Assembly: GCA_902594005.1 (NCBI GenBank)
Contig: CACJKN010000002.1
Coordinates: 3,639-67,638, forward strand
Origin: an uncultured SAR86 cluster bacterium
GTDB taxonomy: Bacteria; Pseudomonadota; Gammaproteobacteria; Magnimaribacterales; D2472
Length of the DNA: 64,000 nt
Reading direction: 5' to 3'
Shown here: in pieces, positions 19,206 to 45,335 of the stretch
Layout: every line of letters begins with the position of its first letter
Numbering within the stretch: position 1 is the stretch's first letter
Notes under the pieces: generated by a model
Seen by the model: only the letters and a program-made list of their open reading frames with translations
The model's database searches: none
What the model was told of the DNA's origin: nothing
Program-made: the position numbers and the translations under genes

Positions 19206-19242
19206 GTTGTATAATGATTTTTAAGAGTATTTTACAAAATAT

Positions 19243-21507: not shown

Positions 21508-21843
21508 TTACCCCGGTGGCCACGAAAGTGGTCTTCCAGCCAGCAGATGTAAGTGAAGATGAAAGACTGACTGTCCGGCTTTCGCTCCATTATTAATAAC
21601 AATCCTAAAAGCATCTTTTGTATCATGATCTTCCGCTATTTTGTTGGCAGCAATAAGAAGCTTTCCCAATAATGCGCTATCGCTCTCATCTGATAAAGAT
21701 AGTTGGGGAATTTCTTTTTTGGGGATTATTAAAATATGAATAGGAGCTTGAGGATTAATATCATTAAAAGCTATACAAAAATCATCCTCATATAAAATAT
21801 CTGTCGGTATTTCTTTATCGATAATTTTTTTAAAGATGGTCAT
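21508..21843 (-). CDS. HIT-family nucleotide hydrolase (HinT-like)
   Basis: Histidine triad QSVFHLHLHLLAG. 111 aa. Confidence 0.85.
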   Translation of the reverse strand: MTIFKKIIDKEIPTDILYEDDFCIAFNDINPQAPIHILIIPKKEIPQLSLSDESDSALLGKLLIAANKIAEDHDTKDAFRIVINNGAKAGQSVFHLHLHLLAGRPLSWPPG

Positions 21844-21845
21844 GC

Positions 21846-22037
21846 CTACATGAAAACTCTTGGCAGAACCCTAATAGCAATATAAAAAATTCCTGCGGTC
21901 ATAACGAGACCTAGAAAAATCACTAAAAGATCTCTTAAAAATGCTGTTAACCTTCCATTTCTTTTAGCTTTTACTAAATTAATTATAAAAAATGTTATAG
22001 CTAAGAGTGATGCGGTAAGTATTAATATTTGAATCAT
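21846..22037 (-). CDS. Hypothetical small membrane protein
   Basis: 63 aa, two hydrophobic helices. Tightly packed between dedA and HIT (7-bp and 2-bp gaps). Confidence 0.35.
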   Translation of the reverse strand: MIQILILTASLLAITFFIINLVKAKRNGRLTAFLRDLLVIFLGLVMTAGIFYIAIRVLPRVFM

Positions 22038-22044
22038 AATAAGT

Positions 22045-22548
22045 TTATAAAATTGAGCTTAATCCTGTAGTGAGTATTATAAGGCCAAAACCCCATACCG
22101 AAATAGCTAAAATAGATGCTCTATAGAATTTCATAAATTCCATACCTGTCATCCCTATTAAAAATGGAACAATAGCCCTCATGGCAGGAATAAATCTACC
22201 CAATACAACTGTAAGTTGACCAAATCTATCAATAAAATTATTTCCTCTCTCAATAATACTCTCTCTTTTTTTAAAAAACTGTGTCTCAAGCACAAGTGGA
22301 CCAAATCTTTTTCCTAAAACAAAGCTGATAACATCGCCCGCATGCGCTCCAATCATAGCTAAAGGAACTATGCTATATAAATCAAGAAGATTGTTGTTAT
22401 AAAGAAATACGCAAATTGAAAAAAGAATTGCACTTGAGAGAATGCTACCCACAACAACAAGTGATTCAGCAAAAGCAAATAATAAGATTAATAAATACGA
22501 ATATTGGAGATTATTTGCAATAAAATCTAAAACGTTATCTAGTGACAT
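22045..22548 (-). CDS. DedA-family membrane protein
   Basis: 167 aa. GKRFG...LGRFIP..R...P...G pattern of the DedA/SNARE-associated family. Confidence 0.75.
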   Translation of the reverse strand: MSLDNVLDFIANNLQYSYLLILLFAFAESLVVVGSILSSAILFSICVFLYNNNLLDLYSIVPLAMIGAHAGDVISFVLGKRFGPLVLETQFFKKRESIIERGNNFIDRFGQLTVVLGRFIPAMRAIVPFLIGMTGMEFMKFYRASILAISVWGFGLIILTTGLSSIL

Positions 22549-23671
22549 CTAAATTATCCAAAATTTGTTCAAATGAAACTAATTTAAAGTTTTGATTTAC
22601 TTTATTTTCGCCAGTGTAGTTGTATCCATCTTGGACAATCATGACTCCTAATGGAAAATCATCACAAAAATCTAACTGGTTTTTATTATCTTTGCATTTT
22701 AAATTGTAATTAAGCGTCTCGATTCCATCTGTATCTGAAACACCATCAATACTTCCATTTCCAATAATCTTGAAACTACTAATAAAACCATATGGGGCTT
22801 GTCTGTTATAAATATTAAACTTGCCATCGCCTTGTGATGAAAGAATAATATAACCATCATTCTTGTCTGTCTTGTAAATAGACACTCCTTCAGGATCGCC
22901 AAATATTTGACCTCTTCTAGAATCAATTAAAAATGGTTTACCTACAAAATCAAAGTTTTTATCGAATTTATATGCTTTTAAATTTCCTCTTACATTTTCC
23001 TCTGAAATAAAGAGCGTTGAATTTTCATCGTCAAATACACATCCTTCAGATTCTCCTCCGTTACTGAAGGTTTTTAACAAATTTAATCCATTTCCATCTA
23101 AATAATAAACCTCAACATCGGGACCCCTATCTTCAGTTACAAATACTACAAATCCATATTTTGGATGTACTCCGGCACATGTTCCATATATATTTGATTC
23201 AGATTTAACTCTGAAATTTGGCTTTACTGGAATTTGAAAATTATTTTTAGTATTTGAAAGTTCTGACATCATGGAATCATTTATTTCCTCATCGATGAAT
23301 ATCCATAAATCTACAGTATTTAAGGATCTATTAGTACCTACCAAGAATGAATAATCTTTTTTTGTTTTAATATTATTATTTTTAAAGTCGAGATTTAACG
23401 TCCTTGTATCTATATTGTTTATTTGGCCTACTGGAGAGAACGTAATTTTATCTCCCCTTAAGTTATATGCATAAATACCCGCTCTCTTATCAGTACCAAA
23501 TACTATAGATAAAGCAGGAAATTCTTTATTAAGCCAAAAAGCAGGATCATCAGCAGCATCACCCCTTGTATCTATTGGGGGAGTTTCATAAATTGGATAA
23601 ACCTCAAAAATGTCTGAGTAGGTATATTGTATTGAAAGAAAACAAAAAAAATATAATAAATACTTATGCAT
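22535..23671 (-). CDS. Beta-propeller phytase (3-phytase), exported
   Basis: Signal peptide MHKYLLYFFCFLSIQYTYS; DAADDPAFWLN, SEGCVFDDE and DPEGVSIY blocks; repeated propeller-like DGxxxT/E segments. Confidence 0.75.
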   Translation of the reverse strand: MHKYLLYFFCFLSIQYTYSDIFEVYPIYETPPIDTRGDAADDPAFWLNKEFPALSIVFGTDKRAGIYAYNLRGDKITFSPVGQINNIDTRTLNLDFKNNNIKTKKDYSFLVGTNRSLNTVDLWIFIDEEINDSMMSELSNTKNNFQIPVKPNFRVKSESNIYGTCAGVHPKYGFVVFVTEDRGPDVEVYYLDGNGLNLLKTFSNGGESEGCVFDDENSTLFISEENVRGNLKAYKFDKNFDFVGKPFLIDSRRGQIFGDPEGVSIYKTDKNDGYIILSSQGDGKFNIYNRQAPYGFISSFKIIGNGSIDGVSDTDGIETLNYNLKCKDNKNQLDFCDDFPLGVMIVQDGYNYTGENKVNQNFKLVSFEQILDNLDVTR

Positions 23672-23679
23672 AATTTTTA

Positions 23680-24276
23680 TTATGATGATTGGTTTATCCA
23701 GTTTAATAAATAAGCATGTGCGGCCCTGTGAGCCTCAATCTTCCCAATCTCATTAAGAGAATTATTTTCTTTAACATTTAAAGAGAAAACAGAAATTATT
23801 ATTTGTAACATAACCCTGAATACCCCATCTTTATCAAACATTTCAGGTAATTTTATATTTGATTCAACATAGGTTTTCATTTCCGACGATAATCCATGAA
23901 TTGATTCTGAGGGTAATGAAGGAGATATAGTGTTTGAAAGAATGAGTATTTGAGCAGGTTTACAATCTATAAAGAAATTATAAATGATCTCAATAGCTCT
24001 CATTACAACTACAGATGTTTGATCAGTATTTATTGATTCTGTCTTTTCTTTAAAAATCTTTTCACAATTATTTAAGTATCTATTTATCATGAATTCTTTT
24101 AAAGCATCAGGTGTTGGAAAAAATTTATAGGTTGATGTCCTTTTAAGATCTGAATATTTGGCAATATTTGCAATTGTTATTGAATCTAAACCTCTTTGCT
24201 CTAAAAGATTTTCTGCTGTTTCAAAAATTTTCTCAATTCGCTTTCTACTTCTTGCTTGTTTAGCCAAATTTTCCAT
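23680..24276 (-). CDS. TetR-family transcriptional regulator
   Basis: N-terminal HTH: GLDSITIANIAKYSDLKRTSTYKFFP. Confidence 0.75.
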   Translation of the reverse strand: MENLAKQARSRKRIEKIFETAENLLEQRGLDSITIANIAKYSDLKRTSTYKFFPTPDALKEFMINRYLNNCEKIFKEKTESINTDQTSVVVMRAIEIIYNFFIDCKPAQILILSNTISPSLPSESIHGLSSEMKTYVESNIKLPEMFDKDGVFRVMLQIIISVFSLNVKENNSLNEIGKIEAHRAAHAYLLNWINQSS

Positions 24277-24320
24277 ACAACAATTATGAACAAATGTTAC
24301 AAAAAGTAAATTAAAAGGAA

Positions 24321-25238
24321 TTAAAATTTATATTCTGTTCCAACAGAAATATAATCGACCTTTCCTTTGTTGGAAGACTCTCTTGAAGACTGGTGTATAA
24401 AAATCTTGGTCTTGTCATTAATCTTATAGGTATAACCAAATGATCTTTGCTCTCCATCATCTATTTTCATATCAGATTTAGCATTTTGAAAATATATAGA
24501 ACTTTTAACAGATAGCTTTCTGTTAATGCTAAAGATATGACCTTCATCTTTTTTATTTGTTGATATCTTTTTAGAGTTTTGCAGCAATAATCCAATATCA
24601 AAGTTATAAACAGCAAACATTAAAGCAAGTCTTGTGCTATCAAAACCCTTAGCATCTTTATCTACGGATAATGCTGAATTAATATTCTCTGTTTTATATG
24701 TAATTGAGTAAGAATAAAAGTCGCCTGATGATTGGCTGATAGAGTTTAAGCTTACTTTCATGCCCTCAATTAATTCAGGACTTTCATATCCTACAAAGCT
24801 ATTCATCCTATTTTCGCCTTGTAAAATATATTTTATATCTGCTCTTGTGTCGTTAAATAGGTCTACTTTTAATTGTCCTAACTTTAAGGCAGAATCATAG
24901 GTTCCTGCGTAAAGTTTACCAAAATCACCTTTGATACCAACGAACGTATTTCTCTCTTTAAAAACCTTCTCGCCGTCAGCTTTGCCATCGGTGGGATCAA
25001 TTTCATTCTCTGCCTGGAAAATTAATGAGTATTTGTCATTTAATTTAAAATTACCTTTAATACCAATTCTTGATGCATTATTTACAAAATTAGTATTTGA
25101 TTCTTCTGCAGAATCTTCGTTCTCATAACTAAAATTTAATTTGCCATAAAATGAAACACTGGCTGTAATACTTGAAGTAAAGAAAATTAATGCGGATAAA
25201 GCAAACAGCTTTTTGGCCCTCATTATTTTAAACTCCAA
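24321..25238 (-). CDS. Small outer-membrane porin (general Gram-negative porin-like)
   Basis: Signal peptide, FYGKLNFSYEN...NASRIGIKGNFKL...TFVGIKGDFGKLYAG beta-strand pattern, C-terminal ...VGTEYKF (terminal Phe). The true start may be the MRAKK Met at 25223. Confidence 0.7.
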   Translation of the reverse strand: MEFKIMRAKKLFALSALIFFTSSITASVSFYGKLNFSYENEDSAEESNTNFVNNASRIGIKGNFKLNDKYSLIFQAENEIDPTDGKADGEKVFKERNTFVGIKGDFGKLYAGTYDSALKLGQLKVDLFNDTRADIKYILQGENRMNSFVGYESPELIEGMKVSLNSISQSSGDFYSYSITYKTENINSALSVDKDAKGFDSTRLALMFAVYNFDIGLLLQNSKKISTNKKDEGHIFSINRKLSVKSSIYFQNAKSDMKIDDGEQRSFGYTYKINDKTKIFIHQSSRESSNKGKVDYISVGTEYKF

Positions 25239-26475
25239 ATATAAATCTAATTGTAAAGAAGAAGAATGCTGTTAAAACTGCTCCCACTGGAATGGTGACA
25301 AGCCATGAAAGGATTATTCTTCCAATTGATGAATAATCCAGATGCGATACACCTTTAGCTAAACCAACTCCTATGACCGCTCCAACAAGTGTATGAGTAG
25401 TCGAGATTGGAAAACCAATGTACGTTGCGGCAACAACTGTCGATGCTGCGGCCATTTCAGCAGAAAACCCTAAACTAGGAGTTAGTGTTGTTATCTTTGT
25501 ACCAACAGTTTTGATAACTCGGCCACCAAGCATCGCTAATCCAAAAACTATACCTGCACCACCGATAAGAAGAACATAGGGACTAACCGCTGATTTAGCA
25601 CCAATAGCTCCTTCGGAAGTAACGCTTATAATTGCTGACATTGGACCAATTGCATTTGCAACATCATTTGATCCATGGGCAAAGGCCATAGCTGAAGCTG
25701 TAACAATCATTAAAATAGCAAATGCAGACTCAACTCCATATTCTCTTATTTTTTCACTATTGAGTCGGAGAAGAATGGCTGTGATTATTGAAACCACAAC
25801 ACCAAATATAACTGTAACTAGCAACACCTCACTATCAGATAGAGGAAGGCCAACATGCTTTAATCCTTTTCTTGCTGTTACTAAAGCAATTATGATCGCA
25901 ACAAAAAAGCTATATATGGGAATTAATGAGACTGCTGCCTGGGATGGGTCTCTCCTATCCAAGATAAACTTTTTTGCACTAAGATAAATAAAGAATGAAA
26001 ATGTTCCTGCAAATACTGGGGAAGTAACCCAGCTGGCAGCAATAGTTCCAACTTTTCCCCATGATACTGCGTAAAACCCAGCAGAAACGATCACAAAGCC
26101 AACAATAGATCCAACAATTGAGTGTGTAGTTGAAACAGGCCAACCTTTTGAACTTGCAATTAGCAACCAAGTTGCAGCTGCCAGTAATGCTGACATCATT
26201 CCAATAATAAATATATTTTCTTGACCTACATATAGATCTGGATCAACTATGCCTTTTCTAATAGTTGAAGTAACTTCACCTCCAGCAAGATAAGCGCCAA
26301 GAAATTCAAAGACAGCAGCAATTAATATTGCTTGTTTAAATGTTATTGCCTTGCTACCAACTGAAGTCCCCATTGCATTTGCAACATCATTGGCTCCAAT
26401 TCCAAAAGCCATAAAAAAACCTGCAAAAGCAGCAATTAGAAGTATTAGGGTAGGATCAAGAAAAAGAGTTTCCAT
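25228..26475 (-). CDS. pitA: Inorganic phosphate transporter, PiT family
   Basis: Duplicated GANDVANAMGT / GSNDVANAIGP signature. 415 aa polytopic. Confidence 0.9.
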   Translation of the reverse strand: METLFLDPTLILLIAAFAGFFMAFGIGANDVANAMGTSVGSKAITFKQAILIAAVFEFLGAYLAGGEVTSTIRKGIVDPDLYVGQENIFIIGMMSALLAAATWLLIASSKGWPVSTTHSIVGSIVGFVIVSAGFYAVSWGKVGTIAASWVTSPVFAGTFSFFIYLSAKKFILDRRDPSQAAVSLIPIYSFFVAIIIALVTARKGLKHVGLPLSDSEVLLVTVIFGVVVSIITAILLRLNSEKIREYGVESAFAILMIVTASAMAFAHGSNDVANAIGPMSAIISVTSEGAIGAKSAVSPYVLLIGGAGIVFGLAMLGGRVIKTVGTKITTLTPSLGFSAEMAAASTVVAATYIGFPISTTHTLVGAVIGVGLAKGVSHLDYSSIGRIILSWLVTIPVGAVLTAFFFFTIRFIFGV

Positions 26476-26480
26476 AATTT

Positions 26481-26522
26481 ATGACATTATTTAAACAATC
26501 TTTTGTAACAGATAAGTTACAA
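26481..26522 (-). promoter_or_regulatory. Candidate Pho-box-like direct repeats upstream of pit
   Basis: Minus-strand reading: TTGTAAC-TTAT-CTGTTAC-AAAA-GATTGTT-TAAA-TAATGTCAT, ending 5 nt before the pit ATG. These are 7-bp repeats at an 11-bp period with AT-rich spacers, resembling the E. coli Pho box CTGTCAT-AAAA-CTGTCAT (4/7 and 5/7 matches for the first pair). Confidence 0.3.
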
Positions 26523-26584
26523 ATATAAATCTTTTTTGTTAATTAAAAAGGAGGTTTGGTAACAAGATTGTTTATAAGAATAAT

Positions 26585-27040
26585 CTAAAAATTAATTTCA
26601 ACGATATATCCATCAAGTTTAGATTTTTGAATCTTTATATCAGAAGGATTTTTATTAAAAAAAAGAGAAAGCTCGTTAACAACATCGGCTAGCAAATCTA
26701 ATCTAGAAATTGTAAAGGTAAGATTTTCCCTACCATTAATATTTCTCAACTCAATGTTTTCTTGATTGAGTAGTTTTAGCTTCTCATTATCGGAAATGTG
26801 TTCATAAATACTCACACCAGAAAGTTTGATGTTCTGACTTTCAATATTTGCAGAAATAATATTTGCTTTCTCAAGCACATAGAGATAATCACTTTCAGTA
26901 CTTTTATGGATTCTTTTAACATTCCTTAAATCTGAAGATACAGAATTAATTAAAAAAGAAATTAAAAGGATGCCTAAAAGTCCAAGAGACAAAAGTACTA
27001 GCTTTTTTTCTCTTTCGTTTAAGTTTCTATAAAAATCCAT
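26585..27040 (-). CDS. gspM: Type II secretion system protein M
   Basis: 151 aa, single N-terminal TM (LVLLSLGLLGILLISFLI). Last gene of the gsp cluster, start overlapping the gspL stop. Call is mainly positional. Confidence 0.6.
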   Translation of the reverse strand: MDFYRNLNEREKKLVLLSLGLLGILLISFLINSVSSDLRNVKRIHKSTESDYLYVLEKANIISANIESQNIKLSGVSIYEHISDNEKLKLLNQENIELRNINGRENLTFTISRLDLLADVVNELSLFFNKNPSDIKIQKSKLDGYIVEINF

Positions 27041-28146
27041 TATGAATACCTGAATGTAAGTTTCCCTGAGACCTTATTACCATTCTCGTTAATTTCCTCA
27101 TTAATAAGTACCACACCAAAGTTGGTAAATAAACTTTTCGCCAGATTAAACTGAGAAGCAGGCATATCATCAATTTCAATAACAAGTTGTTGGGTTTCAA
27201 TTAAAATCTGAGTAGATTTAACATAATCTAAATTGAATCTATCAATATACTTGAAGTACGAATTATCAAAATTATATCTTTCAATAGATTGCGTTTGTTG
27301 ATTTGCAAGAAGTTGATCAATCTGTGCACGAGCGTTAATCACTCTATTAAAGCTTGGATTGAGCGTTTTAAAAATTATAAGAGTCTCCTTTTTATAATTA
27401 TCTATTTGACTTTGAAGGATATTTTTTTGGATAAAAGGAAAACTAACCATTATTAAAAATATTGCAGACAGAGCTATAACATCTCTTTTAGTTATCATCA
27501 ATTTGTTTAAAACATTTGCAATAGTCGGCCTAAATTTAAAGAAATTAATACTAGAGTCATTTGATGCAAGAAATTGTTCTTGCAACTCCTCTAAATCTCC
27601 TGATTTTTCTTCAAGGTCATCAATAGCTATAGACTCTAAAAAGGAATCAGAGTGTTCATTTGGTATGGAGAATCCTCTACCGTCTGAAAGCTTAATTAAT
27701 GATTTATGTTTGGTATTTACTGAAACACCTGTATCTGTTTCACCGAGCAAGAAATATTCTGGAATTAAAAAGATTTTATTATTAAGTTTACTTAGCTCAT
27801 TCTGAATATCTTCATAATATTCCTTATCAATGAGAAAAACTAAATCATTGTTATTTTCTGAGAAAGAGAAAAATTCCTGGTTAGAAATATCATTTACAAG
27901 AATATCTTCTTTATCTGCAAAGAACCTTGCTTCATATTTCTCTTTTGTTTCGCCTTCTTCTTTGTTGAAGTTGAACGTTGAAATCTTTGAGCTATCTAAA
28001 AGAAGATAAATTATTGAAGCAGGATCAATATTATTTTTTAAATCACTTAAAGATATTTCTTCTTCCTGAATCTTTTTATTACCTTCAAAGCAAACTAAAT
28101 TAAGCTTCTTTGAAGAAAAATCTGTTGAAATAATATATTGCTTCAT
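27040..28146 (-). CDS. gspL: Type II secretion system protein L
   Basis: 368 aa, cytoplasmic N-domain plus a central TM (VIALSAIFLIMVSFPFI) plus a periplasmic C-domain. Located between gspK and gspM. Mainly positional/architectural. Confidence 0.6.
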   Translation of the reverse strand: MKQYIISTDFSSKKLNLVCFEGNKKIQEEEISLSDLKNNIDPASIIYLLLDSSKISTFNFNKEEGETKEKYEARFFADKEDILVNDISNQEFFSFSENNNDLVFLIDKEYYEDIQNELSKLNNKIFLIPEYFLLGETDTGVSVNTKHKSLIKLSDGRGFSIPNEHSDSFLESIAIDDLEEKSGDLEELQEQFLASNDSSINFFKFRPTIANVLNKLMITKRDVIALSAIFLIMVSFPFIQKNILQSQIDNYKKETLIIFKTLNPSFNRVINARAQIDQLLANQQTQSIERYNFDNSYFKYIDRFNLDYVKSTQILIETQQLVIEIDDMPASQFNLAKSLFTNFGVVLINEEINENGNKVSGKLTFRYS

Positions 28147-29109
28147 CTAGTTATTATATGTTCTTGTTGTAATAGTAGCTCTTCCCTTCTCTATTGTAAT
28201 TAAAGATTTGCTTTTGAATGTAAAATTTTCATAAATCGTATCAGACATTAAATAAAAACTTTCTGTATTAGTTGAAAAATTATTCATGCTTTTATCGGGT
28301 AAGTAGTTTGTAAATACTTCTTTAAATTCTTCAATGGTTTTGAATCCATCAACAGGGCTATTCATGATCAAATATTCTGCATCATCTATTGATATACCCA
28401 AATAAGATGCAAGAACAAGAGCGTCTTCTAACTCAAGTGTATTTACATTTATATTTGTTTTTTCAGAATATGGAATAACGCATATGTATTTCTTCAGATC
28501 ATTTAAATCAAACTCTCTTGAAGCTGGTAAGTTATTTAATTCTGAGAAATCATAAAGAGTTCTTTTGGATGTATATTGTCTTGGTTCATTTATGGGGCCT
28601 GTATAAAAATAATCTTCATATCCGTTTGATCTTGGCTGATCATCATAATCAACCCAATCAATTATCTGGTCAATAAATGAATCAATTTGTCTTTCATCAT
28701 AATTAAGAAATATCAACATGTTACTCAAGATAGAGATAGACCTATCATTAGGAAGCTTGTTATTTTCTGCAGAAATTAGTAATGAATTTAAGTTAAAGCA
28801 ATTTGATGTATCTACTAATCTAGATCGAATAAGGAATCCATTACTTTCAAAAAATATTTCATCCTTCAATAATTGATCATTTTTTGTAAGGTATCCTTTG
28901 TTATATCTTAAATTTTGATCGATTAGATCTATTCCAAGACTTTCCATATTTCTTTGAAGCTGAATCGATGTTGATTGAAATTCAATATATGTTGATCTTT
29001 TGATAGATTTAAAAAATATTTCACCTAGAGATACGCTTATTCCAGAAAGAATAAGTACAATCAGTAGCACTGAGATTAACACTACTCCTCTTTTATTATC
29101 TGTATACAT
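28147..29109 (-). CDS. gspK: Type II secretion minor pseudopilin K
   Basis: RGVVLISVLLIVLILSGISVSL N-terminus typical of GspK (no Phe at +1). 320 aa. Confidence 0.75.
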   Translation of the reverse strand: MYTDNKRGVVLISVLLIVLILSGISVSLGEIFFKSIKRSTYIEFQSTSIQLQRNMESLGIDLIDQNLRYNKGYLTKNDQLLKDEIFFESNGFLIRSRLVDTSNCFNLNSLLISAENNKLPNDRSISILSNMLIFLNYDERQIDSFIDQIIDWVDYDDQPRSNGYEDYFYTGPINEPRQYTSKRTLYDFSELNNLPASREFDLNDLKKYICVIPYSEKTNINVNTLELEDALVLASYLGISIDDAEYLIMNSPVDGFKTIEEFKEVFTNYLPDKSMNNFSTNTESFYLMSDTIYENFTFKSKSLITIEKGRATITTRTYNN

Positions 29110-29683: not shown

Positions 29684-30046
29684 TTAATTCTTTTTTAAAA
29701 AACCCTTAGTTTCATATACAACTTGGGAGTTATCTTTTTTGGTTATTTCTATTTGATATTCAATGTAAGATTTCATTGGGGCTTCATTAAATGTTTCTTT
29801 CCACTCCCACTCATCTCCATAAAAAACTAAGGAACCGCTTCTATTTTTTTGATTAAATGGTTTTTCTAAAGTATTAATTAAAGAAATCCTATTATTTGCT
29901 ATCTCTCTAGCAATTACTCTATTTTCTAAAGAGAAGATTGATAATGTTGTTGAGCTCAATGTTTGATAAACCGACATAACAGCGACGCTAAGTATTAAAA
30001 GCGATACCGAAACCTCTATTAAGCTAAAACCTCTCTTAAAATTCAT
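29684..30046 (-). CDS. gspI: Type II secretion minor pseudopilin I
   Basis: MNFKRGFSLIEVSVSLLILSV leader. 120 aa. Confidence 0.8.
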   Translation of the reverse strand: MNFKRGFSLIEVSVSLLILSVAVMSVYQTLSSTTLSIFSLENRVIAREIANNRISLINTLEKPFNQKNRSGSLVFYGDEWEWKETFNEAPMKSYIEYQIEITKKDNSQVVYETKGFLKKN

Positions 30047-30536
30047 CAGTTCTTAAGAATTCTCCTCCATGAGTAAGAACAAAATTATATTTCTGATTAT
30101 TGTTGTAAAAAGTGAATTTTGCTCCTGTTGTTTCACCAGATGGATAAAATAAGATATATGGTAAATCTAGATCATCATTAGATAGCTTAAATTTAAGACC
30201 ATCGCTTGTTTCAATTTCTTTTTCAAAATCAATAAATTCATTCCAGGTGTAGCTATATATGGGTTTCGAGATTATTCCAGTTTCTTCATTAGTTATTTCA
30301 TAAACAGCCTGTTCATTTGTATTTGCATACCATCCTAAGACTTTTCCACGAATTATGCTTTCTTGGGAGATTTCAGAAAAGTTTTCTTCTAATGTCTTAG
30401 GTGAGTTACTAATGTTAACAATATTGGTATTCAGAAGAAGTATTGATGACATCAAGCCAATAATAACAATTACAATAAGTAATTCTATTAATGTAAATCC
30501 TGGTTTTTTATTTAAGCCAATTACCAAGGTCTGCAT
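30036..30536 (-). CDS. gspH: Type II secretion minor pseudopilin H
   Basis: KPGFTLIELLIVIVIIGLMS leader. I use the Met of MQTLVIGLNKKPGFTLIE (30536) rather than the track start at 30569. This still overlaps the gspG 3' end by 29 bp. Confidence 0.75.
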   Translation of the reverse strand: MQTLVIGLNKKPGFTLIELLIVIVIIGLMSSILLLNTNIVNISNSPKTLEENFSEISQESIIRGKVLGWYANTNEQAVYEITNEETGIISKPIYSYTWNEFIDFEKEIETSDGLKFKLSNDDLDLPYILFYPSGETTGAKFTFYNNNQKYNFVLTHGGEFLRTDEF

Positions 30537-30927
30537 TTTCACCTGTTCCTCCTTCCACTCCATCAGCACCTAAAGTGTAGACATCATAGGATGAGTTTTT
30601 TAAGCCAGGATACAGATATAGGTATTCTCTACCCCATGGATCTTGAGGGAAAGACTTTATATAACCTCCTTCAGGATAGAGTGACGGTCGTTTAAGATCT
30701 GACGGAGGAACAACTAATGACTGTATTCCTTGATCAGTAGTTGGGTAAGTTAGCTCATTAAATTTATAAAGCTCTAGCGCTTTCTCAATTTGTGAAATAT
30801 CTGCTCTCACTTTTTCTAAATTTGCTCTTTGGAGAAAAGGAGACACATTAACTGCAACTACTGTAGCTAGTATGCCGAGTATCACAATTACTGCCATAAG
30901 CTCAATTAAAGTAAATCCTTTTTTCAT
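30508..30927 (-). CDS. gspG: Type II secretion major pseudopilin G
   Basis: MKKGFTLIELMAVIVILGILA, DPWGREYLY and GADGVEGGTGENADLGNW are highly characteristic of GspG. Confidence 0.95.
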   Translation of the reverse strand: MKKGFTLIELMAVIVILGILATVVAVNVSPFLQRANLEKVRADISQIEKALELYKFNELTYPTTDQGIQSLVVPPSDLKRPSLYPEGGYIKSFPQDPWGREYLYLYPGLKNSSYDVYTLGADGVEGGTGENADLGNWLK

Positions 30928-30929
30928 AA

Positions 30930-32123
30930 TTAATTTAATATTAGTGTGTTCATTTGCATTATAGGAATAAGTATAGCCATAACGATTAAAAGAATAAATC
31001 CACCCATCACAATAATGATTAATGGCTCTATGAGAGATAAGACAGTTGAGCGAGTTGTTTCAATCTCAGATTTCATAAAGTTAGAAGCTTTTTTGAACAT
31101 CGGAGTGAGATTGCCAGACCTATAACCGCTGGAAATGAGTTGGTTAAAGATATCTGGAAATATTTGTTCGCGGGTTAAAGCACGTGAAAAATCAGAACCC
31201 TCTTTTACTGACTTTATTATTTTGTTAAGACGATCTTTAAGATAAGCATTATTCAAAACATCAGATGTTTCTTTTAGCGCATCGTCTAGAACTATCCCTG
31301 ATGACATTAATAAGTACATAGTGCTACTGAATCTTTCAGTCTCAGATTTTAATAAAAATCCTCCAAATATTGGAATTTTAAGAAATATTCTATGAATATT
31401 TATTGCCTTATCAGTACTTAGTAACCTCTTATAATAGAAAAAAGAAACACCTAATATCAGTATAATAGAGGGAATTATATAAATCATATTTGAAGATATA
31501 TTCATTAATATTGATGTAAGTAAGGGAAGATCAACGCCTGATTTAACGAATTGATTTACAACCTGGGGCATTACAAAAGTAAGTAGTGAAATTACTACAA
31601 CAATTGAAAAAGAAAAAAGAATAAACGGATATGTTAAAGCAGTCCGAACTTTCTGATTAATAGATAAACTTTCTTCGAGATAATCTGACAATGATTTAAA
31701 CATCTCAACAAGCCTTCCTGAAGTATCACCAGCTTTAATTAAAGATACATATGTATTATCAAAAACTTGAGGGTAAGCCTCCATAGCATTACCTAGTCTT
31801 TTGCCCTGAATTATTTCATCCCTTAAATTAAATAATATATTTTTTAAATCTTTATTTTTAACTTGCTCAGCAGTCATTTTTAAAGCCTCATCAATTTGAG
31901 CAGCTGCCTCAAGAAGTGTGCCAATTTGCCTAGTAGCAAGAACCAAATCCTTATTTTTGATTTTATATCTTTTGGTAGTTTGAGATTTTATTTCTTTAAG
32001 TTTGTGTGGTATTAAATTTAGACTTTTTATTTCCTTTCTTGCCAATCTTTCACTTTCGGCATTTATAAATCCTGATTGAACTGAGCCTTCAGAATCAAAA
32101 GCCTTATAACTATACGAAGGCAT
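30930..32123 (-). CDS. gspF: Type II secretion inner-membrane platform protein F
   Basis: 397 aa, duplicated GspF domain, 3 TM. Located between gspE and gspG. Confidence 0.9.
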   Translation of the reverse strand: MPSYSYKAFDSEGSVQSGFINAESERLARKEIKSLNLIPHKLKEIKSQTTKRYKIKNKDLVLATRQIGTLLEAAAQIDEALKMTAEQVKNKDLKNILFNLRDEIIQGKRLGNAMEAYPQVFDNTYVSLIKAGDTSGRLVEMFKSLSDYLEESLSINQKVRTALTYPFILFSFSIVVVISLLTFVMPQVVNQFVKSGVDLPLLTSILMNISSNMIYIIPSIILILGVSFFYYKRLLSTDKAINIHRIFLKIPIFGGFLLKSETERFSSTMYLLMSSGIVLDDALKETSDVLNNAYLKDRLNKIIKSVKEGSDFSRALTREQIFPDIFNQLISSGYRSGNLTPMFKKASNFMKSEIETTRSTVLSLIEPLIIIVMGGFILLIVMAILIPIMQMNTLILN

Positions 32124-33615
32124 CTTCTTTTATATTGTTAGATCTAATGAGCTCATCACAAGACGTTATACCTTTTATAAGAAGATCTGAGCATGAAGAA
32201 TTTATAGACGGAGCATTTTTAAATACATACTCATTAATCTCATTCTCTGACTTTTCATTGTGAATCATGTCTTTAATGTTTTTATCAACATTTACGCACT
32301 CTGCAACAGCAATTCTTCCTTTGTATCCGGTACCATTACACTTATCACAGCCCTTGTGATCATAAACTTCAAGATTGTGCTTAAGACCAAACAAATCAGC
32401 AATGTCTTTGTTAATAGTGGTTTTAACTTTGCAGCTATCACATAACCTTCTTACAAGTCTTTGAGAAATTACTGTTTTCAAACTTGAAGATATTAAAAAT
32501 GATTCTATTCCCATATCTCTCAACCTAGTGATAGCTCCGACAGCGCTATTTGTGTGCACTGTTGATAAAACTAGATGGCCCGTTAAGCTAGCTTGAATAG
32601 CAATTTGGGCAGTTTCTGTATCTCTTATTTCTCCTACCATCACTACATCAGGATCTTGCCTTAGCATTGCACGTAATCCCGTAGCAAAAGAGTATCCAGT
32701 TTTTTGATTAACCTGTGTTTGGCCAATGCCCTTCAGGGTATATTCAATTGGATCCTCAACAGTAAGAATATTTTGAGACGAGTCACTAAGATCTCTAAGA
32801 CCAGCATAAAGTGTTGTAGTTTTTCCTGAGCCTGTTGGTCCAGTAACTAGAATAATACCTTCTGATTCACTTAAAGACTTCTTATAGGTTGAAAGTATTG
32901 TTTGCGGTAAACCAAGATCATTAATGTTAATTTGTGCTGATTGTTTATCTAAGAGTCTTAATACAATTCTTTCTCCATATGTAGATGGTAAAGTTGAAAC
33001 TCGAACATCAACATTTTTATCTCCTAGGGATAAAGAAACTCTTCCATCCTGTGGCAACCTCCTTTCAGAAATATCAAGTTTTGAAATAACCTTTAGTCTG
33101 GCAATAATTAATGGTGTGAGTCGAGGATCTTGAGATAAAACTTCCTGCAGTATTCCATCTATCCTATATCTTACTGATAAAGAATCTTCATAGGGCTCAA
33201 AGTGAATATCAGATGCTCTTAACTTAATTGCCTGACTTAAAATACCGTTTATAAGTTTTATGATTGGGGCATCATTGCTCCCGCTTAATAAATCTTCTGT
33301 AGCTGTAATTGTTCCTGCAAAAGTTTTAAGATCAAAATTATCTTTAAGTTCTTCTGAAAGTTCAGAGTTTTGTGAAATTACAGAAAAATTTGATGTTATG
33401 AGGTTATTTAATTCCTCAGCATTACAAATTTCTACTTTAAATGATTTACCTATATACCTAAATAGCTCCTGATGTATATCAAAGCTTAGCTCTGAAGTTG
33501 AATAAATTTTAATCTCGCCATTTTTATCTATTCCAAAGATATTATTCTGTTTTACGAAGTCGTAAGGAAGAATGCTCGATGTTTCTGCCACAACATCATT
33601 AGGTATATCAGACAT
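32110..33615 (-). CDS. gspE: Type II secretion ATPase E
   Basis: Walker A GPTGSGKTTTLY, Asp box, Walker B DPDVVMVGEIRD, His box, tetracysteine CDSC...CDKCNGTGYKGR. Confidence 0.95.
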   Translation of the reverse strand: MSDIPNDVVAETSSILPYDFVKQNNIFGIDKNGEIKIYSTSELSFDIHQELFRYIGKSFKVEICNAEELNNLITSNFSVISQNSELSEELKDNFDLKTFAGTITATEDLLSGSNDAPIIKLINGILSQAIKLRASDIHFEPYEDSLSVRYRIDGILQEVLSQDPRLTPLIIARLKVISKLDISERRLPQDGRVSLSLGDKNVDVRVSTLPSTYGERIVLRLLDKQSAQININDLGLPQTILSTYKKSLSESEGIILVTGPTGSGKTTTLYAGLRDLSDSSQNILTVEDPIEYTLKGIGQTQVNQKTGYSFATGLRAMLRQDPDVVMVGEIRDTETAQIAIQASLTGHLVLSTVHTNSAVGAITRLRDMGIESFLISSSLKTVISQRLVRRLCDSCKVKTTINKDIADLFGLKHNLEVYDHKGCDKCNGTGYKGRIAVAECVNVDKNIKDMIHNEKSENEINEYVFKNAPSINSSCSDLLIKGITSCDELIRSNNIKEDAFV

Positions 33616-35463
33616 TTATTTATCTTTTGTGAGGTCGATTAGCTTAGATTGCTGCTTAAGCAACTGTTCTGCTTTGATAAAATTATACTTTTCAGTCGAA
33701 ATCTGAGAAACCGATTCCGAGTCAACTAAAATCTTAGGTCTTAAAAAGACCATTAAATTCTTTTTAACTTTTGACTCACTGGATGATTGGAATAATTTAC
33801 CGAGAACTGGAATTGAACCAAGGACAGGAACTCTCTGAACATCTTCCTGAATATCTTCGTCAACCAAACCGCCCAAAACAATAATTTGATTATTATCTAC
33901 CAATACAGTTGTTTCTATTGTTCTTTTATTTGTAATTAAATCAGTAGTCCCGGTTAAAGGGCCAGCAACACCAGATACTTCCTGTTTTATCTCTAAGATA
34001 ACTGAATTTCCCTCATTAATTTGAGGCTTTACTGAAAGCTTTATACCAACCTCTTCTCTTGAGGTTGTCCTGAAGGGATTTGTATTATTTGAACCTAAAC
34101 TTTCACCTGTTGTAATAGGAATTTCCTGACCAATAACAGTAGAAGCTTCCTCATTGTCCATTGCCAATAATGATGTAGTAGTTAAGATATTAGAATTCTT
34201 ATCTGCATCTATAGCATTAATGATCGCTATCATGCTGTCATCATCCTCTGAAATTCTTCCAATACCTGCAATTATGCCCTGAGAGTTTAAAAGCGAATTA
34301 GCTGCAATATTTGAAAAATTAGCATTATCACCAGACTCAATTGCAGATCCTGTTAAACCTAGTAGATCAGGTCCTGTTCCATTTTGGAATCTAGTAATTC
34401 CAATAGGTATTTCTCCATCTTCTGCACCAGCAAAAATAGTTTCTACACCTAAACTTCTTGCGGCTGTTTCTGAGAGCTCAACGACTATAGCTTCTACTAA
34501 TACTTGAGCCCTTCTAATATCAAGCTTAGATATTAGATTTCTTATAGTCGCTATATTTGATTCATCACTAGATACAACAACAGAATTTGTTGGAGCATGG
34601 TATGTAACTATTGGTTTTTCTGATTCTGAAGAAATAAATCTTGAAGCTATAGAACTAACTATTCCTGCAACCTCCTCAGCATTAGCATATTTAAGGTATA
34701 TAACAGCGACTGAACCTTCACTAATTGCATCAGCATCTAGTTGCTGAAGTGTCTCTTTAATTATGTTTGTCGTAATTGAATTGGCAGATACTATTACAGA
34801 ATTTGATGCACTAAAAGAAATGGCAACAAAATTATTGATTGTAGGATTATTTTGGGATTTTAACTTCTCAAGAATTCTAACTGCCTCAACTGATGAGAGA
34901 TTCTTTAAGTCAACAATAGTTACACTTGCGGTGTTATCTTCATCTAATGACTGAACTACTTCCGTTATTCTTTCAACATTGCTTTTTCTATCAACGACAA
35001 GCAAAGAGTTAATTGATGCAATGCTTGAAACATTCGCTTGTCTTCCAGCGATTGGTTTAATAAGTGGTAAAAGCTCAACTGAAGATCTATTTTTAAGCTC
35101 AATGACTCTTGTAATAAATTCACCGCCAGATTCTCCAGAGTTTTGATCTCTTGTTGCTTCATTTTCAGGAACAATCCTAACAAAATTTTCATCATTAAGG
35201 GCGCTAAAACCATTAACCTGTATTGTTCGCAAATAAACATCCCAAACTTCATCAGAAGATAGTGATGAGTTAGAAAAGATTGTGACTTTCCCCTTTACTC
35301 TAGGATCAAGAATAATAGTTTTCTTTGAAAAATTAGCTATATCTTGAGTTACTTTTTTAATATCTACATCTTCATAATTAAGAATAAAAGTTTCCTGAGA
35401 TTGCACAACAAAAAATGCACATAATGTTGTCACTAATAAAGATTTTTTAAAAAAGCTATTCAT
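33616..35463 (-). CDS. gspD: Type II secretion secretin D
   Basis: 615 aa. Signal peptide, N0-N3 repeats, secretin core (VPVLGSIPVLGKLF, LMVFLRPKIL). Confidence 0.9.
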   Translation of the reverse strand: MNSFFKKSLLVTTLCAFFVVQSQETFILNYEDVDIKKVTQDIANFSKKTIILDPRVKGKVTIFSNSSLSSDEVWDVYLRTIQVNGFSALNDENFVRIVPENEATRDQNSGESGGEFITRVIELKNRSSVELLPLIKPIAGRQANVSSIASINSLLVVDRKSNVERITEVVQSLDEDNTASVTIVDLKNLSSVEAVRILEKLKSQNNPTINNFVAISFSASNSVIVSANSITTNIIKETLQQLDADAISEGSVAVIYLKYANAEEVAGIVSSIASRFISSESEKPIVTYHAPTNSVVVSSDESNIATIRNLISKLDIRRAQVLVEAIVVELSETAARSLGVETIFAGAEDGEIPIGITRFQNGTGPDLLGLTGSAIESGDNANFSNIAANSLLNSQGIIAGIGRISEDDDSMIAIINAIDADKNSNILTTTSLLAMDNEEASTVIGQEIPITTGESLGSNNTNPFRTTSREEVGIKLSVKPQINEGNSVILEIKQEVSGVAGPLTGTTDLITNKRTIETTVLVDNNQIIVLGGLVDEDIQEDVQRVPVLGSIPVLGKLFQSSSESKVKKNLMVFLRPKILVDSESVSQISTEKYNFIKAEQLLKQQSKLIDLTKDK

Positions 35464-35839
35464 TGCTAAACCTATTATTTATTGTAAATTTTTTACCTTG
35501 AAATTCAAAAATTATTACACTTTTATCAACTTGCACTAATTTATATTTATTTTCTAATAACTCATTTATCTGAACTACGTATTCTTTACCTCCCTTTTTT
35601 ACAATCACTGATGTATTCTCATCACCCAGTCTTACAGCGGATAATTCGTAGTTAAAGCTTGCAGGAGGTGTATTAGAAATATCGCTTCGTATAGTAGTGT
35701 TTTGAACATTGATTGGTCTAATTACAGAAAAATCCTCTATCTTATTAGAGCTATTCAAAATTAAAGTGTTAACAAGTAGATATGCTGATAGTGATATCAC
35801 TAAAAAGTAGAACACATATTTTAAATTTACTTTATTCAT
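35456..35839 (-). CDS. gspC: Minimal GspC-like protein (TM + HR domain only)
   Basis: 127 aa. N-terminal TM, then YELSAVRLGDENTSVIVKKGGKEYVVQINELLENKYKLVQVDKSVIIFEFQGKKFTI, which resembles the GspC/PilP HR fold pattern. 8-bp overlap with gspD. No PDZ or coiled-coil region. Confidence 0.55.
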   Translation of the reverse strand: MNKVNLKYVFYFLVISLSAYLLVNTLILNSSNKIEDFSVIRPINVQNTTIRSDISNTPPASFNYELSAVRLGDENTSVIVKKGGKEYVVQINELLENKYKLVQVDKSVIIFEFQGKKFTINNRFSNE

Positions 35840-35904
35840 ATTAAAAAACGAACTGAGTATTTTAGCTTATTTAAAAGTAATATACTCTAAAGAACTATCT
35901 TAAG

Positions 35905-37113
35905 TTAGGAATTGTAAATAGGGAGTGTAAACCAAAAGGTGCTACCTTTCTGCCTTCTTTTCATGACACCAACTTGACCACCAAGGCTTATTGTGAGATT
36001 TTTTACAATTGCAAGCCCAAGACCGCTCCCAGTTTTTTGGCTAGCTCTTGCATCTGGCGTTCTATAGAATCGCTTAAAAACTAGCTCTTGATCAGAACTT
36101 TGTATACCTATTCCAAGATCTTTAACTAAAACTTTAATGAAGTTCTTCTCTTTCTTTACCTCTATCTCAACCTCGCCTTCATCATTAGCTTTAGTATATT
36201 TAATAGCATTATCTAGAAGATTTGTCATGATTCTTTCAACGGCAGCCTCATCAGCTAGAACGTTGGGTAGTTTTTTTTCTATAAAATTAATATTTATTCC
36301 TTTCCTTTTAGCAGAACTGTAATGTGAATCTTTTACAATACTCACTACATCACATACATTTAATTCATTGAGATCTAAATGAATCTCGCCATAATCAATC
36401 CTCGACAAGTCTATTAAATCACTGACCAAGCCTGAGATCCTTTCTGTATTATGAAGAATAGCTTTAGTAAAGGTTTTTGCATCCTTCTTATTGTCAATAG
36501 CCCCGTTCATCAAAGTTTCAGCATTTGCAGAAATGACACTAACGGGAGTTCTTAATTCATGTGATAAATTCGAAATAAAATCTCTTCTCATAGAAGCATT
36601 TGCCCTTAATTCAGTAACATCATTAATGACAAGAATGATTTCGTTTGTTGTTTTTGATCTATTTATAGATCCAAGTAACCATTTAGGATTTGAACTTTCG
36701 CCTTGTATCTGAAATTCATATTGGAATAAGCCATCTTTTAAAGCATTTTTAAACATATTCTTTAATGCATTAATTTTTAAATCATTGATATTTTTATTTT
36801 TAAGGGATTTGATCTCAAATATCTTTAGCATGCTTTCATTTGCATATGTAATATCTCCAGATGTGCTAGCAAGCAGAACGCCCTCTCCCAAGTTATCTAA
36901 AACACTTCCAAAGGAATCTGTTTGCTTTGCAATCAATTTGAATCTTATGCGATTAATCCGCCAAACAACCAATGATGAAAATAATGAAAATAAAATAATA
37001 GTGATGCTAATTTCAAGATTAGAACTGTAAGCCCCATCAAAGTAGCTCTGAATTAAAAAGAACGATATAAATGAAATTAAGAAAACACTGAAGATTCTAA
37101 GAAAAGAAAACAT
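35905..37113 (-). CDS. phoR: Sensor histidine kinase, PhoR-like
   Basis: Two N-terminal TM, PAS-like segment, H-box FISNLSHELRTP, N box LLDNAIKYT, G boxes DLGIGI / GSGLGLAIV. Located 6 bp downstream of the PhoB-like regulator. Confidence 0.65.
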   Translation of the reverse strand: MFSFLRIFSVFLISFISFFLIQSYFDGAYSSNLEISITIILFSLFSSLVVWRINRIRFKLIAKQTDSFGSVLDNLGEGVLLASTSGDITYANESMLKIFEIKSLKNKNINDLKINALKNMFKNALKDGLFQYEFQIQGESSNPKWLLGSINRSKTTNEIILVINDVTELRANASMRRDFISNLSHELRTPVSVISANAETLMNGAIDNKKDAKTFTKAILHNTERISGLVSDLIDLSRIDYGEIHLDLNELNVCDVVSIVKDSHYSSAKRKGININFIEKKLPNVLADEAAVERIMTNLLDNAIKYTKANDEGEVEIEVKKEKNFIKVLVKDLGIGIQSSDQELVFKRFYRTPDARASQKTGSGLGLAIVKNLTISLGGQVGVMKRRQKGSTFWFTLPIYNS

Positions 37114-37119
37114 TAGACT

Positions 37120-37815
37120 CTAATCAGATGACCTAGAGAACCTATACCCAACACCTCTGATTGTTTGGATATGTTTACCCATTTCTTTGAGTTTTTCTCT
37201 TAATCTTTTAACGTGGGTATCGACGGTTCTGGTAGTAACATGGGATGAATATCCCCAAACTTCCTCTAGAAGCTGGTCACGGGTTTGAACCCTACCTCTT
37301 CTGTCAACTAGATGCTTTAAAAGTTTAAATTCCAAGGCAGTTAAATTTATCTCAACATCATTAACATAAACCTCATGAGAATCGTCATTAATATTCAAGC
37401 CATCAAAAGAAATGACTGTATTGGACTTTGAGGCTCCTTCCTGAGTATTTCTTTTTAATATTGCTTTGATTCTTAACATAAGCTCTCTTACGCTAAAAGG
37501 TTTTGTTACATAATCATCTGCGCCAAGCTCAAAACCAACCACTTTATCAACTTCATCCCCTTTAGCTGTAACAATTATTACAGGAATATCTTTATAAATG
37601 TTTGATGACTTAAGGGTTTTACAAAAGTCTAATCCCGAACCATCTGGAAGCATTAAATCAAGAATTATTAAAGATATGTTATTTGATGAAAGTTGGTCAT
37701 CAGCTTCTTGAAGATTAAGAGCACTTAAGGGGTGAAACCCTTCATTAGCTAAATTATAAGAAACTGTTTTATTTATATCTGGTTCGTCTTCTACTACTAA
37801 AATATGATGCGACAT
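37120..37815 (-). CDS. phoB: OmpR-family response regulator, PhoB-like
   Basis: Receiver ILVVEDEPD...LILDLMLPDGSG...TAKG. Winged helix LTALEFKLLKHL...VWGY...RTVDTHVKRLREKL...IQTIRGVGYRF. Confidence 0.7.
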   Translation of the reverse strand: MSHHILVVEDEPDINKTVSYNLANEGFHPLSALNLQEADDQLSSNNISLIILDLMLPDGSGLDFCKTLKSSNIYKDIPVIIVTAKGDEVDKVVGFELGADDYVTKPFSVRELMLRIKAILKRNTQEGASKSNTVISFDGLNINDDSHEVYVNDVEINLTALEFKLLKHLVDRRGRVQTRDQLLEEVWGYSSHVTTRTVDTHVKRLREKLKEMGKHIQTIRGVGYRFSRSSD

Positions 37816-45334: not shown

Positions 45335-45335
45335 A

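Follow-up and report, generated by a model that had tools for sequence, protein, structure and literature searches.

Phosphate-related surroundings of the type II secretion genes in SAR86 bacteria and a predicted Pho box upstream of pit

Does a type II secretion system (T2SS) that is flanked by phosphate genes itself belong to the phosphate-starvation response? The question is raised by a stretch of 64,000 nucleotides, here called the window, from an uncultured SAR86 cluster bacterium (contig CACJKN010000002.1, positions 3,639 to 67,638). In the window the secretion genes gspC to gspM lie between the regulatory genes phoBR and a group of genes for phosphate uptake and release. SAR86 (Magnimaribacterales) are among the most abundant bacteria of the surface ocean, where phosphate often limits growth. 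An original prediction, made from the window alone, placed the T2SS within a phosphate-starvation system of secretion and uptake. The phosphate-related surroundings of that prediction are conserved throughout the order and a Pho box precedes pit, but no Pho box precedes gspC or phoB. The reading favoured here, at a probability of about one half, is that an operon running from pit to the HIT gene is activated by PhoB, beside a standing T2SS whose clients probably include exoproteins of the Pho regulon.

Order and conservation of the phosphate island

The order of the SAR86 phosphate island is phoBR, a minimal T2SS of 11 genes (gspC to gspM), and a predicted pit-porin-tetR-phytase-dedA-orf63-HIT operon (Table 1). 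In the open reading frame (ORF) list of the window these are 20 ORFs, all on the minus strand, in an unbroken series from 37815 to 21508. Recomputed gaps are 65 bp for phoR/gspC, 109 bp for gspM/pit and 44 bp for porin/tetR, with the remaining junctions inside the array overlapping or no more than 8 bp. The next minus-strand gene past the array, that of an MFS transporter, is separated from HIT by 124 bp. Coordinates, strands and junctions agree with the co-directional array originally described, and the gene identities named with it are backed by Pfam and NCBIfam matches.

Species representatives in GTDB were scanned with a GspF alignment, giving 69 SAR86-type loci and 11 outgroups, and the window proteins were mapped onto these loci, fetched with 10-kb flanks. 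The gene phoR is found upstream of gsp in 56 out of 57 informative SAR86 species loci, and a PiT gene downstream in 52 out of 55. The phoBR-gsp-pit order is therefore conserved among the relatives of the window organism. No orthologues of phoBR or PiT are present beside the T2SS clusters of the 11 outgroups. Around 20 SAR86 loci might have been classed as lacking phoBR; this was rejected, as the C-terminus of PhoR is present at the very edge of those loci. The identity of GspF within SAR86 falls to 53-65%, and the closest homologues found outside SAR86 are about 28-36% identical. A GspF identical to that of the window is encoded in 1661 blocks of the assembly collection, TARA ocean metagenomes and a 1.23-Mb contig among them.

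The genes beyond the secretion cluster are more variable. Strains with 100% identical GspF differ in their content past PiT. The window-type cassette consists of pit, porin, tetR and phytase. In a second type, pit and phytase are 64% and 54% identical to those of the window, tetR is on the opposite strand, and a Pho box and an 840-aa TonB receptor are also present; the gspM/PiT gap of this type is 32 nt long and contains no Pho box. The identity break between the two types is inside gspL/gspM (95% and 89%), and one locus, L007, is a hybrid of both (window 21508-26584 compared with L002-L005, L007-L009 and L012). In 46-48 loci (L013-L078; for example L034:16222-17924) the polyphosphate genes Ppx/GppA and PPK2 are located on the opposite strand between gspM and PiT, sometimes accompanied by an aquaporin-family gene, and these loci have a Pho box in the divergent gap. 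Ppx/GppA and PPK2 are absent from this position in the window lineage. Their presence in most SAR86 means that there are phosphorus genes on both flanks of the T2SS despite the turnover of the cassettes. The T2SS cluster appears as a conserved anchor, with exchangeable phosphorus cassettes under predicted Pho-box control at both ends.

Pho boxes before pit and between phoR and gspC

An 18-column direct-repeat matrix was fitted to the PiT upstream regions of 27 SAR86 loci outside the window lineage. The consensus of the matrix is [GT]T[CA]ACA-N4-TGT[AC]ACA. The PiT upstream regions contain two, often four, 7-mers with an 11-bp period, such as ATTCACTCAAAAGTATTTATATCTTCACATAAACGTAACA, positioned 42-48 nt ahead of the PiT ATG in the 27 species, and the element GTTTAAATA is conserved approximately 10 nt downstream of the motif. 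Tandem half-sites in other species are oriented direct repeats, GTCACA-N5-GTCACA, of the same period, in arrays of up to 4-5. The E. coli Pho box, for which the consensus CTGTCATA(AT)A(TA)CTGT(CA)A(CT) has been quoted (PMC2225411), has the same TGTCA core and the same 11-bp spacing, and the SAR86 motif is taken as a predicted PhoB site.

With a threshold of at least 10 nats there are approximately 112 hits per 1.27 Mb of SAR86 loci, compared to about 8 expected from Markov shuffles, and 0 of these hits are inside any mapped gene. They are located after phoR, before PiT, between tetR and the TonB receptor-phytase pair, before phytase, and before the pair of genes for a lipoprotein and a TonB-dependent receptor (TBDR). 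As an outside check, public metagenome contigs were scanned for GTCACANNNNTGTCACAT. Most matches were due to chance or eukaryote-like; the 10 credible downstream genes include those of 3 PstS-type binding proteins, 1 TonB receptor and 1 secreted ribonuclease. A generic scan for sigma-70 promoters and terminators found fewer sites than in shuffled sequences and is uninformative in this AT-rich DNA.

In the window this clade-specific matrix, which was trained without the window lineage, scores 8.9 nats at 26503-26520, upstream of pit. This is the sole oriented hit upstream of the approximately 60 window genes, with the runner-up scoring 3.7. The original prediction had reported no convincing Pho box; this remains the case for gspC and phoB, and does not extend to the region as a whole. 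With a Pho box upstream of pit, the uptake-plus-phytase half of the island, the pit-to-HIT operon, is very probably a target of PhoB and under its control.

It is proposed that, when phosphate is limiting, phosphorylated PhoB binds to the direct-repeat box at 26503-26521, which would stand in the place of the -35 element of the pit promoter. This would switch on the porin and the PiT carrier for the entry of inorganic phosphate (Pi), together with the phytase, which has a signal peptide. The T2SS genes of the window are not behind a Pho box and would most likely be expressed by read-through from phoBR, because the phoR/gspC gap is only 65 bp and has no hairpin. They may also use a conserved -10-like element of their own, about 20 nt before gspC. 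The result would be a standing export machine, and exoproteins of the Pho regulon are probably among its clients. Foremost among the candidates in the window is the phytase; in sister lineages the candidate is a 980-aa lipoprotein driven by a Pho box.

Two further observations concern the Pho boxes of the window. The pit leader differs by a 14-nt indel, ATATGGACTAAATT, from that of near-identical strains (26476-26490; compared with L001, L006 and L014). Through this indel the distance from the box to the ATG is 27 nt in the window and 41 nt in those strains; in the other species it is 42-48 nt. The pit mRNA of the window would have a very short leader. The strongest Pho-box signal of the window, at 13.9 nats, is on the plus strand at 48010-48061, where five half-sites (TGTGACA, ATGTCAA, TGTAACA, TGTCACA and AGACACA) follow each other at the 11-bp period. 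It is located between the convergent 3' ends of a PhoD-like gene (ending at 47917) and a gene for a 314-aa esterase-like protein (ending at 48081). This array is aimed into the antisense strand of the esterase gene, with only a 16-codon ORF downstream. Its product might be an antisense RNA or a small RNA; alternatively, the array might be a relic.

The region between phoR and gspC has three forms, measured from the end of phoR to the start of gspD. The short form (444-510 nt; 12 loci, including the window lineage) is without Pho box and without hairpin. The long form (623-1170 nt; 28 loci) has one or two very strong Pho boxes of up to 16.7 nats, 42-75 nt after phoR, followed by a 28-aa ORF and a hairpin. 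The extra-long form (approximately 6.2 kb; 16 loci) has a Pho box, a 980-aa lipoprotein with a duplicated domain, an 875-aa TonB-dependent receptor and the same hairpin as the long form. Pho boxes oriented towards gsp are therefore present after phoR in 44 other SAR86 species loci. The hairpin, AAAATGAGCTAC-N4-GTAGCTCATTTTT, has a folding energy of -11 to -17 kcal/mol (RNAfold), compared to -3.4 kcal/mol for the short spacer of the window. A T run comes after it, and only a few bases lie between the hairpin and the gspC ATG. Of its two halves, the left one, A[AT][AG]AGCTA[AC]A[AC]T, is kept even where the right one is not. Most of the distinct SAR86 sequences upstream of gspC contain this element in the form ATAAGCTA[AC]A[AC]T, and the window version, ATAAGCTAAAAT, resembles a -10 hexamer (TAnAnT; TAAAAT) at about 20 nt before the gspC ATG.

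A neighbour-joining tree of GspD, GspE and GspF interleaves the three spacer forms, which indicates that the spacer has been remodelled repeatedly. The window lineage has lost the Pho-box module between phoR and gspC. The pattern of the spacers is equally compatible with partial read-through, giving a Pho-modulated T2SS, and with insulation, giving a T2SS that is independent of Pho.

The basic ORF of the long form encodes 28-29 aa (M.K.IWNKFH.FMKSGRL.KVIKISGI) and is present between phoR and gspC in 28 species (L018-L078; for example L032:6130-6216 and L062:6013-6099). It is 21-41 nt downstream of Pho boxes that are stronger than any others in the SAR86 loci, with the terminator-like hairpin next. 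It is absent from the window and has no Pfam match even at E 10; its identification as a small PhoR-binding protein of the DUF1127 type, an idea taken from PMC12501420, was rejected on this result. A role in feedback on PhoR or on the T2SS, as a new kind of modulator, is conceivable.

The lipoprotein of the extra-long form, of about 980 aa, consists of two tandem copies of a domain of about 450 aa and is paired with the 875-aa TonB-dependent receptor. It is encoded directly upstream of gspC in 16 species (L015:658-6234, L034:583-6214 and 14 others), as well as at L025:18971-21190, and in each of these two genomic contexts it has a Pho box ahead of it. It has no Pfam family and no PDB sequence match, and the window does not encode it. 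Scavenging of phosphorus at the cell surface is a candidate role for this lipoprotein, which is also a possible client of the T2SS.

A bolder proposal, which is considered rather unlikely, is that the single SAR86 T2SS is in effect a phosphate-starvation organelle, kept in a genome of about 1.2 Mb mainly for Pho-regulon exports such as the phytase and the 980-aa surface lipoprotein of the TonB-receptor system. Its link to PhoBR would be a modular spacer (none; Pho box, 28-aa peptide and attenuating hairpin; Pho box, lipoprotein-TBDR pair and hairpin) that tunes how far secretion capacity follows phosphate stress.

The T2SS among rival explanations and known systems

Several observations weigh against a T2SS that serves the Pho regulon beside a PhoB-activated operon. 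In the window the best score in the phoR/gspC region is 3.0 nats, compared to 10-16.7 in other species, and upstream of phoB it is -3.3, with no site of at least 4 nats. Species that have a Pho box behind phoR also have a terminator-like hairpin between gspC and the unit which that box drives. This hairpin may insulate the T2SS from PhoB, and it favours insulation at least as much as co-induction. Two genes for acyl-CoA synthetases (AMP-binding) upstream of phoB show equally conserved synteny. Because such unrelated genes are conserved equally well, synteny alone is no proof of a functional link, and the adjacency of phoBR and gsp may be inherited rather than selected. Both PhoB and PhoR score below their NCBIfam equivalog cut-offs. 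The phytase gene of sister strains with identical GspF forms a pair with that of a TonB-dependent receptor. This suggests a periplasmic phytase, with phytate being imported and hydrolysed there and no need of a T2SS. The pairing of porin and PiT in the window would fit an external phytase, the product of which re-enters as Pi. Phosphate control of the T2SS is a possibility suggested by association, and so is export of the phytase and the PhoD-like protein through it, for which the indications are signal peptides and adjacency.

On the same observations it is possible, if not favoured, that the T2SS is a general housekeeping machine. Its position would then be inherited synteny and its substrates various exoenzymes (lipases, glycosidases), with the phytase acting in the periplasm on phytate/Pi arriving through the porin or a TonB receptor. 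The equally conserved AMP-binding genes, the -10-like element before gspC in most species, the insulating hairpin between gsp and the upstream Pho-driven units, the lack of a Pho box before gspC in the window and the phytase-TBDR pairs all fit this explanation, as does the finding that hxcR of Pseudomonas fluorescens is not induced by Pi limitation (PMC2225411). Against it, Pho-box-driven cassettes adjoin gsp at both ends, whatever the spacer form or lineage, although the cassettes have been exchanged repeatedly. The porin-type cassette of the window, moreover, offers no obvious route for phytate (approximately 660 Da) to a phytase in the periplasm.

The strong form of the original prediction, in which a dedicated PhoB-induced T2SS resembling Hxc of Pseudomonas exists in the window as well, is unlikely. 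Induction would come through autoregulation of phoBR with read-through, or through undetected weak boxes, and the exported proteins would be the phytase and PhoD. The strong oriented boxes between phoR and gspC, in the 28 long-form and 16 extra-long-form species, are in favour of such a system, and the short form is without the hairpin, so that phoBR transcripts can enter gsp. In P. aeruginosa, where Hxc exports LapA/LapB, the Hxc proteins are likewise detected only at low Pi (PMC9769906). However, no box of at least 10 nats is present upstream of phoB in any SAR86 locus, there is no oriented box upstream of PhoD in the window, and the hairpin in other species points to termination. The secretin differs as well: HxcQ is a lipoprotein secretin (liposecretin), whereas the GspD of the window is not.

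Least probable by far is that the TGTnACA repeat is the operator of the neighbouring TetR and that a pit-phytase operon answers to a substrate rather than to phosphate. This is a formal rival because TGTnACA is self-complementary and the pit site of the window is also a perfect inverted repeat, TTTGTAAC-N6-GTTACAAA; in addition tetR is in or beside the cassette in nearly all loci and the porin/tetR gap has a similar imperfect palindrome, but it was mostly rejected on the oriented direct repeats found elsewhere, which have an 11-bp period and up to 4-5 copies as is typical of OmpR/PhoB-family binding, on the position of the strongest sites beside phoR, 10 kb from tetR, and on the same pattern preceding PstS genes in unrelated contigs.

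The reading of a PhoB-activated operon beside a standing T2SS has parallels in known systems. Pho-linked T2SSs are already established, in Hxc and in the Xcp of P. putida, and the SAR86 locus resembles them by association. Set side by side on their described features, Hxc and the SAR86 locus both have a gspC-M-type cluster beside phosphate-scavenging genes with Pho-box promoters, and a Sec signal on the cargo, which in SAR86 is candidate cargo. In the Hxc of P. fluorescens the gene for the cargo, the DING protein Psp, is induced by Pi limitation and hxcR is not (PMC2225411). The window sequence suggests the same combination of an induced cargo gene with uninduced secretion genes. There are also differences from Hxc. 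In the window, phoBR abuts the cluster and PiT, porin and phytase follow it; the T2SS is probably the only one of the cell rather than a second system; the signal peptide of GspD is an ordinary one without lipobox; GspC has only a transmembrane helix and the HR domain; and neither a LapA-type phosphatase nor a DING protein is encoded in the locus.

The substrates of Xcp in P. putida are reportedly UxpA and UxpB. This T2SS is described as secreting phosphatases (Putker et al. 2013, cited in PMC5082522). The likeness to SAR86 would be that of a T2SS with phosphatase substrates of the phosphate-starvation response encoded nearby; the substrates, host and ecology of Xcp are different. In Caulobacter crescentus, phosphate starvation leads to the T2SS-dependent release of a lipoprotein, ElpS, that is linked to phosphatase activity (PMC2996285). 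This is also an aquatic oligotroph, and ElpS invites comparison with the 980-aa Pho-box lipoprotein directly upstream of gspC in 16 SAR86 species, although the two proteins are unrelated and the latter is absent from the window. To our knowledge, the ElpS gene is neither next to phoBR nor inside the gsp cluster.

The pit promoter resembles the pstS and phoE promoters of E. coli in the TGTCA core, the 11-bp phasing and a box at -35, approximately 10 nt upstream of the -10. The E. coli PhoE is likewise a Pho-controlled porin alongside a Pi transporter, as is predicted for SAR86. Unlike the E. coli Pho regulon, the SAR86 locus has a PiT carrier instead of PstSCAB, and its porin is of the Porin_4 family instead of the PhoE or OprP family. 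The E. coli PitA is not known to be activated by Pho. Most SAR86 are without Pst, and pit is a core gene (PMC3358033, PMC11582366).

Gene pairs of a beta-propeller phytase and a TonB-dependent receptor have been reported (Lim et al. 2007, cited in PMC5082522). Going by the description in the citing text, the sister strains of the window organism carry exactly such a pair. The window differs in having a porin in place of the receptor, and its phytase is 54% identical to the receptor-linked allele. PhyA of Xanthomonas oryzae, a bacterial phytase that is secreted, supports growth on phytate (Chatterjee et al. 2003, cited in PMC5735085); the passage citing it does not name the export route.

A literature search combining SAR86 with T2SS terms returned no paper linking SAR86 to type II secretion, and the word 'secretion' is absent from the SAR86 genome papers PMC3358033, PMC11582366 and 10.1101/2025.06.17.660167 (a 2025 preprint). 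New here are a defined SAR86 Pho-box motif, the order-wide phoBR-T2SS-PiT island, and a map of putative Pho-controlled units comprising PiT, porin, phytase, TonB receptors, the lipoprotein and the 28-aa peptide. The regulon model is concrete, and can be tested with ocean metatranscriptomes that already exist and with the one cultured isolate. Export of phytase or other phosphatases by the T2SS, if it takes place, would mean that SAR86 add to the extracellular turnover of dissolved organic phosphorus, beside uptake through TonB receptors. Without such export, the locus still clearly illustrates how strains swap phosphorus cassettes at fixed genomic anchors.

Components of the T2SS and neighbouring features

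Table 1. Features of the phosphate island and its surroundings, with positions in the window.
Feature	Position	Strand	Evidence and remarks
phoB-type response regulator	37120-37815	-	PF00072 and PF00486; best of 99 NCBIfam hits TIGR02154 PhoB, 250 bits, cut-off 296
phoR-type PAS histidine kinase	35905-37113	-	HisKA, HATPase_c, PAS; best NCBIfam PnpS 268 bits, phoR_proteo 215 bits, each under cut-off
phoR/gspC spacer, short form	35840-35904	-	65 bp; no Pho box, no hairpin; keeps ATAAGCTAAAAT
gspC, transmembrane helix and HR domain	35456-35839	-	PF11356 (T2SSC) 20.5 bits; TIGR01713 E 1.3e-6
gspD secretin: N0, three Secretin_N, Secretin	33616-35463	-	TIGR02517 453 bits, cut-off 351
gspE ATPase	32110-33615	-	PF00437 474 bits; Walker A GPTGSGKT; two CxxC (tetracysteine motif)
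gspF platform protein	30930-32123	-	PF00482 180 bits
gspG, H, I, J, K pseudopilins	28147-30927	-	Pfam T2SSG, T2SSI, T2SSJ, T2SSK, N_methyl
gspL	27040-28146	-	weak Pfam/NCBIfam; hhalign E 4e-4 with outgroup GspL, 321 columns
gspM	26585-27040	-	weak Pfam/NCBIfam; hhalign E 4e-4 with outgroup GspM, 138 columns
predicted Pho box TGTAACTTATCTGTTACA in gspM/pit gap	26503-26521	-	GTTTAAATA (-10-like) 10-11 nt downstream; end of box 27 nt before pit ATG
pit, PiT/PHO4-family carrier, type 1 allele	25228-26475	-	PF01384 369 bits; 82-88% identity across SAR86
outer-membrane porin, Porin_4, signal peptide	24321-25238	-	PF13609 66.6 bits
TetR-family regulator	23680-24276	-	PF00440 (TetR_N) 23.4 bits, slightly under gathering score
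beta-propeller phytase, Sec signal peptide	22535-23671	-	PF02333 153 bits, residues 21-375; N-terminus MHKYLLYFFCFLSIQYTYS
dedA/VTT	22045-22548	-	Pfam
63-aa membrane ORF, conserved	21846-22037	-	position and conservation
HIT hydrolase	21508-21843	-	Pfam
ATG22-like MFS transporter	20142-21383	-	beyond array
GDPD glycerophosphodiesterase, cytoplasmic	19243-19986	+	without signal peptide (by eye)
acyltransferase	18123-19205		beyond array
prepilin peptidase, gspO/pilD type	43571-44305	+	PF06750 and PF01478; 7.7 kb from gspC, opposite strand
three adjacent paralogous genes (260, 250 and 243 aa)	44552-46947	-	two signal peptides and one lipobox; between prepilin peptidase and PhoD
PhoD-like protein, short (318 aa)	46961-47917	+	PF09423 partial match, 68.7 bits; Sec-type signal, no twin arginine

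The description of the cluster as a complete minimal T2SS is a fair one, since GspC to GspM and a separate prepilin peptidase were found, with the matches of GspC, GspL and GspM each being weak. GspF, G, I, J and K exceed their Pfam gathering scores, and GspH has N_methyl and matches TIGR01708 at E 7e-13, which is under the cut-off of that model. The prepilin motif GF[TS]LIE is present in the pseudopilins G, H, I and J. GspC, GspL and GspM are each under the curated cut-offs; position, size and weak but consistent matches agree with their assignment. A profile of SAR86 GspC orthologues matches the structure of the GspC HR domain (PDB 2LNV) at E 0.0099. For GspL and GspM, the profile alignments to the outgroup cluster span nearly the full length, and PDB profile searches with both gave nothing useful. 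No lipobox is found in the GspD N-terminus, MNSFFKKSLLVTTLCAFFVVQSQ, which has an ordinary signal peptide instead. The cluster is without gspN, gspA/B and pilotin genes, and GspC, at 127 aa, has neither a PDZ domain nor a coiled coil; it is in this sense that the system is minimal. The genome, a streamlined one of approximately 1.2 Mb, probably encodes no other T2SS.

The PiT protein matches the NCBIfam models CysP (108 bits) and PitA (71 bits), both far under the cut-offs. Phosphate rather than sulfate is favoured as the substrate because of the Pho box and the SAR86 literature (PMC11582366). Orthologues of tetR adjoin phytase and TBDR genes in other SAR86. The trio of dedA, the 63-aa ORF and HIT is found together in locus L023, at 45, 53 and 64% identity. 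Just past the array (18123-21383) there are further phosphorus-related genes, with no detectable Pho box before any of them.

Signal peptides or lipoboxes were recognised by eye in the phytase, the porin, the PhoD-like protein, the three paralogues and the 314-aa esterase-like protein. The exact sequence of the PhoD-like gene was found on only 5 contigs, compared to 1661 blocks for GspF, and it therefore appears to be strain-variable. The three paralogues were considered as phosphate-related cargo and rejected. The model of the family (AlphaFold, pLDDT 85.5) is a tandem ferredoxin-like, chlorite-dismutase/ABM-like fold, with a TM score of about 0.5, and shows nothing specific to phosphate. This family is apparently confined to marine metagenome sequences.

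Elsewhere in the window, an IMES-1 RNA motif (Rfam RF02034) is located at 56733-56921 on the minus strand, between two minus-strand genes, and scores 198 bits with a gathering score of 81. Abundant non-coding RNA known from metatranscriptomes has been mentioned in SAR86 genomes (Dupont et al. 2012, PMC3358033).

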